Assembly: GCA_963666345.1 (NCBI GenBank)
Contig: OY762721.1
Location: forward strand, 1,632,001-1,696,000
Reading direction: 5' to 3'
DNA length: 64,000 bases
Origin: Desulfatiglandales bacterium
Lineage (GTDB): Bacteria > Desulfobacterota > DSM-4660 > Desulfatiglandales > Desulfatiglandaceae
The notes beneath the pieces were generated by a model, which did not search any database, was not told where the DNA came from, and saw only the letters and a program-made list of their open reading frames with translations. The translations under genes were made by a program, and so were the position numbers. Each line of letters begins with the position of its first letter. Position 1 is the stretch's first letter. This document shows positions 1 through 23,145 of this stretch, piece after piece.

Positions 1-122
1 CCACATCTCAACAATTGATTCCTGATCACCCGCCCGATGGAATTATCGGGCAATGCCTCTACCAAGTTGATAACCCTCAATGCAAAAGCCTTGGTTCGTT
101 TCCTCAATTCGTCTTCTTTCAT
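1..122 (-). CDS. Four-helix-bundle protein (TIGR02436 / 23S rRNA IVP family), 5' part; runs off window edge
   Basis: Not in ORF track. Manual translation from ATG at 122 (ATGA overlap with the cheR stop): MKEDELRKRTKAFALRVINLVEALPDNSIGRVIRNQLLRC..., paralogous to the ORFs at 1066-1421 and 13741-14100. Confidence 0.85.
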   Translation of the reverse strand, partial: MKEDELRKRTKAFALRVINLVEALPDNSIGRVIRNQLLRC

Positions 123-976
123 CTTTTTTCCGCGCTCCGCGTTCCGCGTTCCGACTTCTTATAGATTCGCGCTTTATCGTCCACTACTTCGTATTGGTCT
201 CGCACATCGGTGAACCGGAGGTCTTCCTTGGTTCCGAGACACAGGAAGCCGCCGTGCACCAGGCTCTCCGTGAAAAGCCCCAGTGCCCGGTTCTGGAGTT
301 CGCGGTTGAAGTAAATGAGCACGTTGCGGCAGAAGACCAGGTGCATCTCGCCGAACACGCGGTCGTTAACGAGGTTGTGATTGGCGAAGGTGATGCGCTC
401 CTTCAAGGAGTCTTCCATGGCCGCAGCGTCGTACCGGGCGTGGTAGTACTGTGAGAAGGAGGCTCTGCCGCCCGCCTGCTGGTAGTTCCTGGTGGCTTTC
501 TGCATCTCCTCGATCTCGTAGATACCCTCCCGGGCCCGCTCCAGGACGGAGTCGTTGAAATCCGTGGCGTAGACGGTCGACCGGTCGTAAATGCCTTCCT
601 CCTTGAGCATAATGGCCAGGGAGTAGACCTCCTCGCCCGTGGCGCAGCCTGTATGCCAGATCTTCAAGTGGGGCCAGGTGCGCAGCATCGGCACGACCTC
701 GGTCCTGATAACCCGGTAGACGAACGGATCCCGAAACATCTCGGTGACAGGGATGGAAAAATACTGGGCCAAGCGCGAGAAGAAATCCTTGTCGTGGAGC
801 ACCCTGTCGATCATTTCGGAGACGGTCCTGCACCCGCTGCCTGACAGGAATTGGCGCACCCTGCGTTCAATGGAGGCCCGGGCATAGGAACGGAAATCGT
901 GGCCGTAAGCCCTCTGCATGGCCTCCAGAAGAAGGTCGATCTCAATCTCTTCGATTGTTGCTTGTTGATTTGTCAC
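119..976 (-). CDS. cheR: Protein-glutamate O-methyltransferase, CheR family
   Basis: Motifs YGHDFRSY, VTEMFRDP, IWHTGCATGEEVYS, FCRNVLIYF, GGFLCLG; GTG start with AAGGA upstream. Confidence 0.93.
   Translation of the reverse strand: MTNQQATIEEIEIDLLLEAMQRAYGHDFRSYARASIERRVRQFLSGSGCRTVSEMIDRVLHDKDFFSRLAQYFSIPVTEMFRDPFVYRVIRTEVVPMLRTWPHLKIWHTGCATGEEVYSLAIMLKEEGIYDRSTVYATDFNDSVLERAREGIYEIEEMQKATRNYQQAGGRASFSQYYHARYDAAAMEDSLKERITFANHNLVNDRVFGEMHLVFCRNVLIYFNRELQNRALGLFTESLVHGGFLCLGTKEDLRFTDVRDQYEVVDDKARIYKKSERGTRSAEKR
127..157. repeat. Heptamer tandem array (TCCGCGY) inside the cheR 3' end
   Basis: TTCCGCGCTCCGCGTTCCGCGTTCCGAC; translated as ...SERGTRSAEKR. Confidence 0.8.
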
Positions 977-1065
977 TGTTTTTTCCTTGCGCTGTTTTTC
1001 TGGTCGTTATGAATATTGATGTTATTTCATGAGCCTTTGGATTGTTTATTGTTTATTGAAAAACA

Positions 1066-1421
1066 TTATTTTCCCTTTTTCTGTGCTGTTCTTCTGGTGG
1101 CGATAAAAATTGATGTGAGTTCATGGGCCTCGCTATACAAGGGTAAAACCTTTTCTTTTTTCATCAGTTTTTCATCGACGATGAACTCCAGCCAGAATTC
1201 CGACTCGTCAGCCTCCTCAATTACAATGCTTATTTTAGATATAAAGGCTGCTTTGGACTGAGAGTGAATTGTGCCCGGTAATTTGCCGCTACAGAAGTCG
1301 AACATCTGGATAATTGTAATCCTATGTGTTTCCCTAATGGCGTTTTAGGTAATGCGACCACAAGCTTGACACAGCGATGCGCAAATTCCTTTGTTCTCTC
1401 TTTTAATTCCTTCGTATCCAT
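1066..1421 (-). pseudogene. Four-helix-bundle protein with a single frameshift at ~1272
   Basis: MDTKELKERTKEFAHRCVKLV...SVAANYRA in one frame continues as TIHSQSKAAFISKISIVIEEADESEFWLE... in another; one added base restores a ~118-aa family member. Could be a sequencing error. Confidence 0.85.
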
Positions 1422-1433
1422 CTCCCTTTTCTC

Positions 1434-1537
1434 CCAATCACAAATCAACAATCGCCAATCAACAATCCAAAATAGCCAATCGCAATCAGTCTTCTTTCAT
1501 CTTCCTTCCGCGTTCCCCGTTCCGCACTCCGAGTTCC
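1434..1537. repeat. Two heptamer arrays (CAATCAA-type 1434-1488; TTCCGCG-type 1505-1537)
   Basis: Visible 7-nt periodicity; the CAATC array is the reverse complement of the GATTGTT arrays at 953-973 and 1036-1058. Confidence 0.8.
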
Positions 1538-19841: not shown

Positions 19842-21167
19842 TCAGGTACCCATCTCCCATGAGGAAAGGTAGTGTTTCTGCTCCTCGGTAAGTGTGTCTA
19901 TCTCCACCCCCATCGATTCCAGCTTGAGTCTTGCGATTTCCTTATCGATCTCCTCCGGAACGGGATATACCATCTTTTCAAGGGTGCCGCTGTTTTTTGC
20001 CATATGCTCGGCTGAAAGGGCCTGATTGGCGAAACTCATATCCATGACGCTCGAGGGGTGCCCCTCGGCGGCCGCCAGGTTTATCAGTCTTCCTTCACCC
20101 AGCACATAGATCCTGTTTCCGCTTTCAAGGGTAAACTCCTCGACAAAATCCCTGATCGTCCTTCGCTCAACCGCTTCATCAGCAAGGCATTTAAGATCCA
20201 GCTCCACATCAAAGTGGCCTGAATTGGCGACTATGGCGCCGTCTTTCATATCCCTGAAGTGCTCCATCCTTATAACGTTTATGTCGCCGGTGAGCGTGCA
20301 GAAAAAATCCCCCAGGCAAGCCGCCTTCTTTATCGGCATCACCTGAAAACCGTCCATGACAGCCTCAAGCGCCCTCAAGGGATCCACCTCGCAGACGATC
20401 ACATGCGCGCCATGCCCCTTTGCGCGGGTGGCAACCCCCCTGCCGCACCAGCCGTATCCGCTCACGACGAAGGTGCTTCCGGCCACAAGCCTGTTCGTGG
20501 CCCTTATCATGCCGTCCACTGTGCTCTGACCGGTGCCGTATCTGTTGTCAAACAGGTGTTTGGTATCAGCGTCGTTCACCGAGATGACCGGGAACTGAAG
20601 CACCCCGTCCTTTTCCATGCTCCTGAGCCTGATCACACCGGTGGTGGTCTCCTCGGTGCCTCCCACCACATTCGCGAGGAAGGTCTTTCGTTCCTCCTCT
20701 GAAAGTCCCTTGCCCCACCGGCTCACAGAGGGCTCAAGCTCGTCCCATTTTTCAAGGGCTATAAAGTGAAGGGAACTCACGAGATCGGCGCCGTCATCCA
20801 TTGTGATGGCGGGCCTGTGCTTTAGGGTGGACAGGATGTGGCTGTAGTATGTTGCATGGTCCTCCCCCTTTATGGCAAACACGGGGATCTCGCTGTCGGC
20901 CACAAGGGATGCTGCCACGTCATCCTGTGTCGAAAGCGGATTTGAGGCACATACCACCACGTCGGCGCCGCCCGCCTTGAGTGTCTTTAAGAGTGCCGCT
21001 GTCTCAGTGGTCACATGCAGGCATGCGGAAAGCCTGATTCCCTGAAGAGGCCTTTCCTTTTCAAAGCGCACCCTTATGGTCTTCAGCACGGCCATACTCT
21101 TTTCGGCCCATTCGATTCTCAAACGGCCCTTTGAGGAAAGATTTATATCTTTGATATCATAGTCCAT
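19842..21167 (-). CDS. ahcY: Adenosylhomocysteinase
   Basis: [57 protein letters not shown]. Confidence 0.98.
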
Positions 21168-21212
21168 TTCAGCTCTTTTATCTCCTTTTATATTCTGATT
21201 TCTTTTCTTAAA

Positions 21213-22379
21213 TTACTTAACCGCCTTTTTCAGGGTATCGGCCATGTCGGTCTTTTCCCATGTGAATTCAGGGAGCTCCCTTCCGAAATGGCCGTAATTG
21301 GTCGTCCTGCCGTAGATGGGTCTCAGCAGGTCGAGCGTCTCTATAATAGCCGCCGGTCTCAGATCGAATTCCTTTTTAACTATCTCCGTCAGCTCCTGGC
21401 TGGAGACGACCCCCGTGCTGTATGCACCGACAAGGACCGAAACGGGTTCCGCACGACCGATCGTGTAGGCGACCTGTATCTCACATTTCTCGGCCAGACC
21501 CGCCGCTACAATGTTCTTTGCAATGTAGCGGCACATATAGGAGGCGCTGCGGTCCACCTTGGAGGGGTCTTTGCCTGAAAACGCGCCGCCGCCGTGGTAG
21601 CCGAAGCCGCCGTAAGTATCCATTATGATCTTTCGGCCGGTCAGCCCGCAGTCTCCCAGGGGCCCGCCCACGACGAAGCGGCCCGTGGTATTGATAAAAT
21701 ACTGGGTGCCCTTATCGAGCATATGCTCAGGTATCACATCCCTTATGACCTCCTCGATTATCGCCTCTTTTAGCGTATCGTAATCGACCTCAGGGCTATG
21801 CTGGGCAGCGATTACCACGGTATGGACCCTAACAGGCCTGCCGTCTGCATATTCCACGGTCACCTGGGATTTTCCGTCCGGCCTCAGCCAGGGAAGCTGC
21901 CCGGATTTACGGACATGGGCAAGTTTTCTGGTCAATCCGTGGGCAAGGTATATCGGCATCGGCATGAGGCTTTCCGTGTCATTACAGGCATATCCGAACA
22001 TAAGACCCTGATCGCCTGCGCCCTGTTCCTTGAAAAGACCGTTTCCTTCGTTGACCCCCTGGGCAATGTCGGGGGATTGCTTGTCGATCGTGGATAAAAC
22101 CGCGCATGTCTCCCAGTCAAAACCCATGGAAGAATTCTTGTAGCCGATACCTTTGATGGTTTCCCTGACCACATCAGGCATGTCCACGTAAGCGTCCGTG
22201 GTGATCTCCCCTGCGATTATAGCCATTCCCGTCGTAACAAGTGTCTCACATGCAACCCTTGCCTTTAAGTCATACTCCAGTATCCTGTCCAGGATATTGT
22301 CGGAAATCTGATCCGCCACCTTATCAGGGTGACCCTCTGTAACCGATTCAGAGGTAAAAAGAAAATTTGATGATTTCAT
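21213..22379 (-). CDS. metK: S-adenosylmethionine synthetase
   Basis: [34 protein letters not shown]. Confidence 0.99.
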
Positions 22380-22514
22380 TGTCCCTCTCCTTTCAAAACA
22401 AAAATTATTCCGCCCTCCCTGCAGGGGAAGGCCTTGGTGTTAAGATTTTAGGTTCTTCTCCAACCTAGTTGTCGAAGAGGGTCCAAGGACCCAAGGATTC
22501 AAGGATTCAAGGGT

Positions 22515-22865
22515 TTTCTTTCCAGGGATCATCGCTTTGGACATTGCCCCGACATCCCTATTTCCCTTCTTAATCTCTGAAGCCGCTCTTCTTTCAAATA
22601 ACCCAGGTCAGCTGATGTCATGTCCCGGGTTTCCAATTCACAGGCTGAACCATATGCAATAAAGAAAAATTGCATATGCTCTATAGCCGTTTTTCTCCCA
22701 TACCCTCAGGCGGTATCCCTTGATACGAAAACAGCGGATCTTCTGATTCGGGAGGTAAAACAGTATTGCTCATCTTTAAAAAAACATTTCGTTTCTTTAA
22801 ACATATGCAAACAAGGTGTATACAATTTTTGCCGAACGTTTAACTGCCTATGATCTTTAAGCTTT
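22515..22865 (-). pseudogene. Degenerate four-helix-bundle gene
   Basis: Manual translation: KLKDHRQLNVRQK...FFKDEQYCFTSRIRRSAVFVSRDTA*GYGRKT...FIAYGSACELETR...DLGYL; in-frame TGA at 22706-22708, lost start, 3' frameshift; inverted octamer arrays at 22478-22513 and 22869-22894. Confidence 0.8.
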
Positions 22866-23145
22866 TCACTCGAACCCGCGGCCCCTTGACCCCTCCAAAC
22901 CGGGAACCCGCTGCGAAGCAGTGGGACTGAGCTGAGCTAAGCGAGGGCGAAGAATCCTTCATTTAGACCAACTCTTTTGGAGATGATCCAGATTTTAAAG
23001 GCATACAAGCACCGTCCGCGCAACATGAAATCGGCCCTCGCCCCTGTTCCCGACCTACAACCGGGCACCGGGGGTTTCAAGGCGCCGAGGAACCGCGAGT
23101 AAAAAGTATGGCCTGTATGATTTCCCGGTGGTGAATCAGGGTAAA

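Follow-up and report, generated by a model that had tools for sequence, protein, structure and literature searches.

Inverted repeat arrays enclose four-helix-bundle genes in operons of a Desulfatiglandales bacterium: likely hairpin gene cassettes built like rRNA intervening sequences

In the complete genome of a Desulfatiglandales bacterium (4.16 Mb, 48% G+C), we analysed small genes of the four-helix-bundle (4HB) family PF05635/TIGR02436 that are accompanied on both sides by arrays of short repeats. The analysed stretch of 64,000 nucleotides (nt) (C1:1632001-1696000, hereafter referred to as the window) harbours four of them, numbered copies 1 to 4, and a further one, copy 0, is located outside of it. 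All four are encoded on the minus strand amid minus-strand genes: along this strand, the order is hybrid kinase, copy 2, CheR, copy 1 and CheB, copy 3 separates OppC from OppD, and copy 4 is found between a methyltransferase gene and MetK. In our view, these loci are likely to represent hairpin gene cassettes of a selfish or hitch-hiking kind, with the build of those intervening sequences (IVS) of rRNA that bear an open reading frame (ORF). Origin, mobility and function of rRNA IVS and of their S23p/IVP protein have awaited explanation since about 1990.

Two of the four window genes are intact. Copy 1 encodes 117 amino acids (aa) (genome 1631769-1632122), and only its 5' end (1-122) falls into the window; its translation matches TIGR02436 with 87.8 bits and PF05635 over a stop-free stretch (genome 1631805-1632110). 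Copy 0 follows 4 kb downstream in the same operon and is 73% identical to copy 1. Copy 3 (13741-14103) encodes 120 aa, scores 71.4 bits with PF05635 (cut-off 33.8) and 86.6 bits with TIGR02436 (cut-off 24), and matches the PDB entry 2RLD with an E-value of 8e-21. Copies 2 and 4 are dead. Copy 2 (1066-1421) is a pseudogene with several in-frame stops, whose sole PF05635 fragment (23.3 bits) lies under the Pfam cut-off and which was assigned by 72% nucleotide identity to an intact cassette at genome 2965239-2965605. Copy 4 (22515-22865) is decayed into two frames, with a PF05635 match of 59.7 bits spanning one internal TGA. An AlphaFold model of copy 3, calculated with 31 aligned relatives, consists of four helices (residues 2-27, 34-57, 63-90 and 95-118) at a predicted local distance difference test score of 96.4. 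In a Foldseek search with this model, 2RLD (template modelling score 0.82-0.91) and 2GSC (0.76-0.85), both structures with five chains, ranked first, followed by Avd (4DWL and 8UB7; 0.72-0.81). The proportions of nonsynonymous and synonymous differences (pN and pS) are 0.21 and 0.89 between copy 3 and its orthologue in the related genome G010, and 0.14 and 0.91 between copy 1 and a gene of genome G017. Judged by these ratios, the 4HB protein is under purifying selection.

Each copy has its own repeat unit, namely GGAACGCG at copy 1, GATTGTT at copy 2, CTAAAGTG at copy 3 and GGRTTCAA at copy 4. On the minus strand, copy 1 is preceded by an upstream arm of GGAACGCG/GGAGCGCG units (125-160), and its downstream arm lies off-window (genome 1631712-1631742). 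Copy 2 is enclosed by an upstream arm of GATTGNN units (1422-1485) and a downstream arm of AACAATC units (953-1058; inverted pairs I9, I11, I13 and I23). The upstream arm of copy 3 (14104-14203) is composed of CTAAAGTG units and begins 7 nt past the oppC stop codon; the downstream arm (13654-13740), composed of CACTTTAG units (plus strand) and a small GGAGCGAAGCGACTCC hairpin, ends at the oppD start codon.

A genome-wide profile search for PF05635 yielded 39 matches at 36 loci. For each locus, the upstream flank was compared with the reverse complement of the downstream flank by strict local DNA alignment, and 1000 random genome positions served as control (mean 19, 99th percentile 26, maximum 31). 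Six loci, in the following called bare cassettes, comprise copies 0 to 3 and two copies in a gas-vesicle cluster; none of them has the transposon-like ends of copy 4 described below or a target duplication. All six exceed the 99th percentile of the control, with scores of 28, 42, 27 and 34 for copies 0 to 3 and of 35 and 37 for the gas-vesicle pair. Among all 36 loci, 14 score above 26 and 11 above 31. Copy 4 reaches a strict score of 18, which is no higher than the control; its imperfect ends and inner arrays pair as RNA via G-U pairs. RNA duplexes of the arms gave z-scores, computed against 200 shuffles, of -7.8 for copy 1 (-55.7 kcal/mol), -2.6 for copy 2 and -4.8 for copy 3 (-47.9 kcal/mol), and minimum free energy (MFE) folds over the full length contain 29, 15 and 34 arm-arm pairs, respectively. 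Over the six bare cassettes, the z-scores span -2.6 to -7.8. Full-length PF05635 frames were found open at seven of the 36 loci, i.e. in five of the six bare cassettes and at two of the 30 other loci. Three cruder measures were abandoned: a 150-nt duplex energy, which suffered from noise (values down to -109 kcal/mol at random positions, with the first percentile of the control beaten by just 4 of 36 loci); a first tandem-array finder, which was over-strict and returned 27 array pairs, chiefly of an unrelated direct repeat at 559-565 kb; and 16-mer probes with three mismatches allowed, which matched a shuffled genome equally well and were replaced by exact or near-exact unit counts.

The first-pass annotation of this stretch, made from its letters alone, had assigned the four loci to one family with the fold of Avd, had placed them between co-oriented genes and had described inverted flanking arrays whose unit differs from copy to copy (GATTGTT, CTAAAGTG and GGRTTCAA). 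These points hold up, with GGAACGCG as an additional unit and with copy 4 as a locus that fails the strict DNA test yet pairs in the RNA fold. Its comparison with ORF-bearing 23S IVS was equally to the point. According to PMC4990558, the IVS in helix 45 of the 23S rRNA of Coxiella burnetii contains an S23p ORF, a stem of complementary ends and heptameric repeats, and is cut by RNase III; IVS of Leptospira and Salmonella are also cited there. On this description, the cassettes match 23S IVS in the PF05635 protein, in the position of the ORF in the loop of a stem of complementary termini, in heptameric direct repeats in the stem region upstream of the ORF, in the frequent decay of the ORF and in a sporadic distribution suggesting horizontal transfer. 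Among the hypotheses named there as still awaiting a test are a 'remnant of a transposition' and a 'mobile element whose ORF aids mobility' (PMC4990558). Unlike 23S IVS, the cassettes are situated between and partly inside protein genes, their arms can be translated as termini of host proteins, and one lineage features transposon ends and target duplications. The single 23S gene of the genome (606500-609522) contains neither a PF05635 match nor such an insert.

The lineage with transposon ends is that of copy 4. Its decayed 4HB frame is part of a 539-bp element (22451-22989, minus strand) resembling MITEs (miniature inverted-repeat transposable elements), with imperfect terminal inverted repeats (TIRs; GGATCATCTCC... 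and ...GGAGAAGAACC), inner arrays (GGGGTCAAGG and CCTTGAATCC) and a target-site duplication, AGATTTTA on the plus strand, at 22443-22450 and 22990-22997. The element is 97% identical to copies at genome 1167746 and 916374, and 30 of the 36 PF05635 loci, copy 4 included, belong to or resemble it (5' end GGATCATCTCCAAAAGAGTTGG..., 3' end ...CAACTAAGTTGGAGAAGAACC; an end sequence was also recorded as GGATCATCTCCAAAAG). Pattern searches for such ends returned 42 left and 50 right ends, with at least 38 pairs less than 700 bp apart that bound elements of 213-603 bp without a transposase, and most gene copies of this lineage are decayed. The 8-mers flanking 38 bounded copies are identical at all eight positions in 24 cases and at seven in another nine, compared to never more than five in a control shifted by 12 bases. 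Among the 31 genomes searched, full-length elements occur in this genome only; relatives share the ends alone. The claim of one common module type at all four loci therefore had to be given up: copies 1 to 3 are bare cassettes, copy 4 is a DNA transposon derivative.

A candidate for the mobilising enzyme resides in the same genome. The sole insertion sequence (IS) of the ISL3 family in this genome is present in three identical copies of 1349 bp (one at genome 1172257-1173605), each with ends starting GGTTCATC and with an 8-bp A/T-rich duplication. The copy-4 element shares with it the terminal octamer (GGWTCWTC), an equally long duplication and the composition of the target; its ends begin GGATCATC and GGTTCTTC and diverge from GGTTCATC further in. 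Based on these similarities, the element was probably moved in trans by an ISL3-family transposase. No larger element with copy-4 ends and a target duplication was detected; five pairs of left and right ends at distances of 1.2-3.3 kb match at one or two of the eight flanking bases. MITEs and mobile insertion cassettes are transposase-less elements with IS ends that are moved in trans. The copy-4 family corresponds to MITEs in its TIRs, its fixed 8-bp duplication, its size of 213-603 bp, the missing transposase, dozens of copies and internal deletion derivatives. Unlike in MITEs, a conserved passenger gene is, or used to be, enclosed by inner hairpin arms of its own, and the family shows a strong sense bias (18 versus 4, see below). 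Copies 1 to 3 do not fit the MITE class at all.

Further variants of the copy-4-type element were noted. A second MITE subfamily (e.g. at genome 1215652, 1322152, 1778680, 1916710, 2890892, 3082889, 3380889 and 4019909) has the same right end, a left end starting GGATCATCTCCCGATTAGTTGG..., an extra hairpin module and 8-bp duplications, and retains only a C-terminal remnant of the 4HB gene. An optional insert of approximately 60 nt (GGGAACCCGC TGCGAAGCA GTGGGAC... or a CCCTGAGCTGGCCGAAGGGTGGG variant) occurs in either arm of the element, for instance at window 22900-22960 and in the flanks of genome 380082 and 1450131; it folds into a small hairpin, the loop of which is of the UUCG or GAAG type, and has matches on its own in genomes G004, G005, G015 and G027. 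The ends of the element read outward as GGAGA(A/T)GA(A/T)CC, and several insertions are located 5-10 nt before a downstream ATG (genome 3317349, 2475719 and 3246674), with one duplication (AAAGATGA) holding the start codon, so that the element may donate a Shine-Dalgarno sequence to the downstream gene. As a cause of orientation bias, the outward GGAG was dismissed since both element ends carry it. Three elements (2885137 and 2889178/2890579-2890920) lie just upstream of an RVT_1 ORF (2892162, a 508-aa frame) in the region 2885137-2892785.

What happens to a bare cassette over time can be followed at the junction of oppC and oppD. A DNA search across 30 related genomes led to nine loci in which this spacer could be read: it is empty in five (9-47 nt), holds the same cassette in one, an array scar in one and other cassettes in two. 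In G010, the same 4HB cassette with CTAAAGTG arms occupies the site without a duplication, and in G001 only a short piece of a CTAAAGTG array is left as a scar. G015 and G018 carry GxxExxY genes instead (TIGR04256, E-values of 1.6e-30 and 2.6e-44), with the unrelated arms CACGAAA and ACAGGAT; the sole GxxExxY gene of the genome studied here (1961000-1961344) is flanked by repeats in direct, not inverted, orientation. Could the stems rather serve the host as operon punctuation, in that they stabilise mRNA, mark processing sites or work as attenuators and so adjust product ratios, with an incidental gene in between? Cassettes sit exactly between the stop and start codons of an operon, and copy 3 is kept in several strains and at the same junction in G010. 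We nevertheless regard a host-serving role as very improbable, since the oppC-oppD junction is empty in five of nine loci and occupied by unrelated cassettes in two, many copies are decayed, and the distribution across phyla resembles horizontal spread. In the che operon, the flanks of copies 1 and 2 gave zero DNA matches across the 30 relatives.

This distribution became apparent from the relatives of copy 3. The 80 loci fetched are labelled as Desulfobacterales, Verrucomicrobiota, Acidobacteriota, Bacteroidales, Flavobacteriales, Planctomycetota (including Scalindua), Patescibacteria and Gammaproteobacteria, and 77 of them could be scored. The inverted flank score exceeds 26, the 99th percentile of the control in our own genome, in 69 of the 77, and the inverted score is higher than the direct one in 66. 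In a subset of 66 loci, obtained by removing 14 with short flanks, Ns or matches under 300 nt, 52 beat the maximum of their shuffled flanks. A missing inverted-orientation bias across many loci had been named in the first-pass annotation as part of the outcome that would speak against the module; the bias is present. Arm units follow the protein clades. Most relatives with at least 53% protein identity (Desulfobacterales, Verrucomicrobiota, Acidobacteriota, Bacteroidota and Planctomycetota) have CTAAAGT arms, and distant clades have TAATTTT (36-46% identity), GTCGGAA (47-51%) or, in Cecembia and Flavobacterium, AAGAGCC. Protein identity and sharing of arm 7-mers are correlated with a Spearman coefficient of 0.55, which none of 300 permutations reached. 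As kin share both gene and arms by descent, this correlation speaks for co-inheritance and not for recognition. Similarly, genes resembling copy 2 (67-73% nucleotide identity) are found in five other genera at other loci; four of the five have GATTGNN arms, in which positions 6-7 (TT, GC/AC or AA) co-vary on both arms, with G013 being mixed. The arm units have survived in spite of saturation at synonymous sites. On this comparative evidence, both inheritance and horizontal transfer involve gene and arms together, as a single unit. The mobile unit proposed in the first-pass annotation is thereby supported by filled, empty, scarred and replaced orthologous sites, by gene-arm co-transfer across phyla and by the target duplications of the copy-4 family.

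The orientation of the cassettes relative to their neighbours is strongly biased. Of the 36 PF05635 loci, 27 lie between co-directional genes, and 26 of these, including all six bare cassettes, are in sense orientation. The 38 bounded copy-4-type elements comprise 18 in the direction of their neighbours, four in the opposite direction and 16 whose neighbours converge or diverge. Across phyla, 73 loci were examined, seven of them with too-short flanks; both flanks are open on the cassette strand in 45 cases and on the opposite strand in one. With replication starting near 2.155 Mb and ending near 0.136 Mb, elements oriented towards the lagging strand still follow their neighbour genes; hence, the bias tracks transcription and not replication. 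Arms of the copy-4 family moreover pair better on the sense than on the antisense strand in 21 of 24 cases (mean -74.8 versus -64.9 kcal/mol). From orientation bias and sense pairing advantage together, we argue that the transcript form matters. The bias could arise by selection, e.g. against antisense polarity, or by the insertion mechanism itself. The findings at the oppC-oppD junction and the orientation counts taken together show that cassettes settle between co-directional genes, nearly always in sense, and can be lost, gutted, scarred and replaced.

These results also bear on a purely DNA-level explanation, in which every copy is simply a transposon that has inserted together with a passenger gene and the arrays are mere TIRs without any function as RNA or as partner of the protein. 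The copy-4 family, with its clear ends, 8-bp duplications, many decayed copies and lineage-specific burst, fits such an explanation well. For the whole set of loci, it appears improbable to us. Copies 1 to 3 and 65 of the 66 copy-3 relatives are without the signature of ends plus duplication, a cut-and-paste DDE element is not expected to give such a sense bias, arm unit and protein clade remain coupled in spite of saturated synonymous sites, and genes are intact in five of six bare cassettes versus two of the 30 other loci.

A closer look at the che operon revealed that arms of hairpin cassettes can be coding sequence of their hosts. The stop codon of CheR and the start codon of copy 1 overlap in an ATGA (119-122), and a second ATGA joins the stop of copy 1 to the start of CheB. 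Approximately the last 11 codons of CheR (tail SERGTRSAEKR) are encoded by the array, with the CheR Pfam domain ending at residue 264 of 285, as are the first 21 residues of CheB, whose CheB_methylest profile starts at residue 22. The part of the copy 2 downstream arm at 953-976 encodes the N-terminus of CheR, MTNQQATIE. Upstream of copy 2, direct reading reveals the head of a copy-1-type cassette (1486-1536, minus strand): a GGAACGCG-type array and ATGAAAGAAGAC, coding for MKED, are followed by an immediate TGA and the arm of copy 2, and the same array and MKED codons likewise precede copy 1. This remnant, truncated by the copy 2 cassette, indicates replacement or nesting, as far as can be read from the sequence.

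Given this architecture, one could think of an mRNA-level intervening sequence in the strict sense, a stem that loops the cassette out and is removed by RNase III or splicing to leave a functional host message. Its build would be that of the 23S IVS cut by RNase III, as described in PMC4990558. The genome encodes one RNase III, MFE folds contain 15-34 arm-arm pairs, the cassettes are in sense orientation (26/27 and 45/46), and in the copy-4 family, pairing is mostly stronger in sense than in antisense (21/24). However, the arms of copy 1 supply the last codons of CheR and the first ones of CheB, and a cut would remove their stop and start codons, which renders a harmless looping-out unlikely at this copy. 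Splicing finds no support either, as an Rfam covariance scan of window positions 1-24000 (E-values up to 0.1) detected two tRNAs only and no intron or ribozyme core. To our knowledge, there is no bacterial route by which the halves of a cut mRNA are rejoined. We thus consider removal of the cassette from a still functional message unlikely, although it is the strongest of the alternatives, and we favour hairpin cassettes that are selfish or hitch-hiking.

Arrays also occur in the che operon without a gene between them. The hybrid histidine kinase upstream of copy 2 (1399 aa) contains three GGAACGCG-type arrays in frame on the minus strand: one in its last receiver domain, encoding RSAERGTRK (1679-1710; I4 and I7), a cargo-less hairpin in the linker between HATPase and receiver (2745-2844; I12 and I21) and a small array hairpin within the HATPase_c region (3093-3137; I24 and I25). 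These may be cassette scars turned into coding sequence of linkers or loops, or they may have fused genes. Another cargo-less hairpin with a GGAACGCG-type array is found between CheB and the next gene. All six strict GGAACGCG arrays of the genome lie inside this 7-kb operon, and all 12 arrays of three GATTGNN units lie in the two neighbourhoods of cognate cassettes, three near copy 2 and nine in the gas-vesicle cluster, compared to none in a shuffled genome.

The gas-vesicle cluster (L012, genome 2950001-2968000) is dense in GATTGNN arrays, e.g. at positions 11773-11940, 13469-13503 and 14699-15184 of L012. It contains two intact bare 4HB cassettes (2953963 and 2965270) and a cargo-less hairpin (2961791-2961932), and its arrays form an array-only ORF of 55 aa, the inter-domain linker in an ArsA-like ATPase and an extension of 76 aa that precedes a GvpK domain. 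Intergenic solo CTAAAGTG arrays of three to six or more units were located at genome 1229729, 2281188, 2287674, 3013836, 3656109, 3673728 and 3755666, often beside a small hairpin of the GGAGTCGCTTCGCTCC type, which is the same hairpin as that following the copy 3 gene.

Multiplying arrays with a single gene in their midst are known from another system. In REP/RAYT systems (repetitive extragenic palindromes and their associated tyrosine transposases, forming REPtrons and REPINs), a small HUH-nuclease gene is flanked by inverted cognate repeats, and the repeat type tracks the gene lineage. Like these, the cassettes have a gene between inverted cognate repeats, further repeat copies elsewhere and a repeat type that follows the gene lineage; unlike these, their protein is a four-helix bundle, their repeats are tandem 7-9-mers instead of single palindromes, and copy numbers are low and local. 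An equivalent function would mean that the arrays are the multiplying entity and that the enclosed gene, 4HB or, in relatives, the nuclease-fold GxxExxY, is a single-copy helper which maintains or spreads cognate arrays. About nine dispersed solo CTAAAGT arms, the cargo-less and in-frame hairpins, the clustering of all strict GGAACGCG and GATTGNN arrays near cognate genes and the clade specificity of the arm unit are in line with this idea. We still rate it as improbable: the 4HB has no recognisable catalytic motif, its relatives 2RLD, 2GSC and Avd are scaffolds or binders, the arrays number 6 to 17 and not hundreds, and solo arms can equally be read as deletion scars, as at the junction in G001.

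Following this argumentation, we suggest that the loci are best described as hairpin gene cassettes. A cassette consists of a promoterless 4HB gene of approximately 350 nt between two arms of short tandem units in inverted orientation, and the sense transcript, or single-stranded DNA, can fold into an interrupted stem of 25-35 bp with the gene in its loop. Expression would come from host read-through or translational coupling, the stem would act as RNA and likely be a substrate of RNase III as in 23S IVS, and the 4HB protein might bind its own arm repeats. The genome displays two modes of spread. In the first, represented by copies 1 to 3, the cassettes are bare, and their cognate arrays multiply within the same operon as well, even in frame inside genes. 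In the second, the copy-4 lineage lies between TIRs of probable ISL3 type and transposes, like a MITE or mobile insertion cassette, without a transposase of its own, leaving a duplication of 8 bp rich in A/T.

Several observations weigh against this scenario. Contigs of four public DNA runs, which were compared over window 1-20000 (copy 4 lies beyond that stretch), have copy 3 in its position, so that neither acquisition nor loss in recent time was seen; they contained no joint across any cassette and no empty site, and small indels between strains cluster in the upstream arm of copy 3 (14114-14198). The bare cassettes yield no clue to the insertion chemistry, because an 8-bp repeat together with inverted ends (at least 10 of 12 positions) was found at only one of 66 copy-3 relatives (control 0). 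Nor do they show a consistent gain in pairing of sense over antisense. About nine dispersed loci distant from 4HB genes have CTAAAGT arrays as solo arms, so arms can exist without the gene. The copy-1-like gene of G017 (L020, G017:C293) is flanked on either side by TTCCGCG arrays that run in direct instead of inverted orientation. The ends of copy 4 and ISL3 agree at approximately half of the first 24 positions, as compared by eye with ISL3 as the only family surveyed. Lastly, the orientation counts rest on crude gene calls by longest ORF, and both the orientation and the pairing counts (26/27, 45/46 and 21/24) come from copies that are kin by descent and thus not independent trials. In G017, the upstream TTCCGCG array is moreover in frame with the 4HB gene and forms an N-terminal extension.

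A bolder version would make the 4HB protein a sequence-specific reader of its own arms and let the cassette spread via a transcript or a single-stranded hairpin rather than via a DDE transposase. We put this forward as a speculation with low odds. It would explain the sense bias, the duplication-free landing between stop and start codons, the local seeding of arrays and the cassette swaps at one junction. If it were true, a very large class of cassettes with 4HB or GxxExxY genes would await description, with rRNA IVS as just one of its landing sites and ISL3 ends as an occasional second vehicle.

Independent of its mechanism, the genome presents the IVS-like build in three states: between the genes of an operon; on board a transposon, whose target duplications are clear and for which a candidate transposase resides in the genome; and as scars, cargo-less hairpins or recruited coding sequence of protein termini and inter-domain linkers. 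In the full-text literature searched, which leaves most subscription journals outside its coverage, no description of such packaging outside rRNA was found. With these three states in one genome, binding of the arms by the protein, cutting of mRNA stems by RNase III and mobilisation by ISL3 become directly testable questions. For genome annotation, intergenic tandem arrays of 7-9-mers and odd low-complexity protein tails may be footprints of cassettes.

Two further systems invite comparison. Integron cassettes are small genes that lack a promoter and come with a recombination site able to form a hairpin; they enter in a single orientation and depend on expression from outside. The 4HB cassettes share with them the nearly uniform orientation, the presumed external expression and a site that can hold different cassettes; unlike in integrons, the hairpin encloses the gene instead of following it, and the insertions are spread over ordinary operons. 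Neither an integrase nor an attI platform turned up, with no search aimed at either. Avd of the diversity-generating retroelements (4DWL, 8UB7) has the same fold as the 4HB protein at approximately 10-11% sequence identity. No reverse transcriptase is encoded beside any of the four copies; the genome's two RVT_1 ORFs are located at 2892162 and 3778801. Template and variable repeats did not turn up beside the copies either, with no separate search aimed at them.

Finally, the window contains two features apart from the cassettes. Two adjacent tRNA genes are encoded on the minus strand at 11426-11581, where the contig depth in the metagenome peaks. Another family of inverted repeats (GGCACAGGG..CTTATCT / AGATAAGGCC...), unrelated to the 4HB cassettes, occurs at 18726-18908 and 50474-51251 and combines one left arm with up to three right arms at a spacing of 293 nt.

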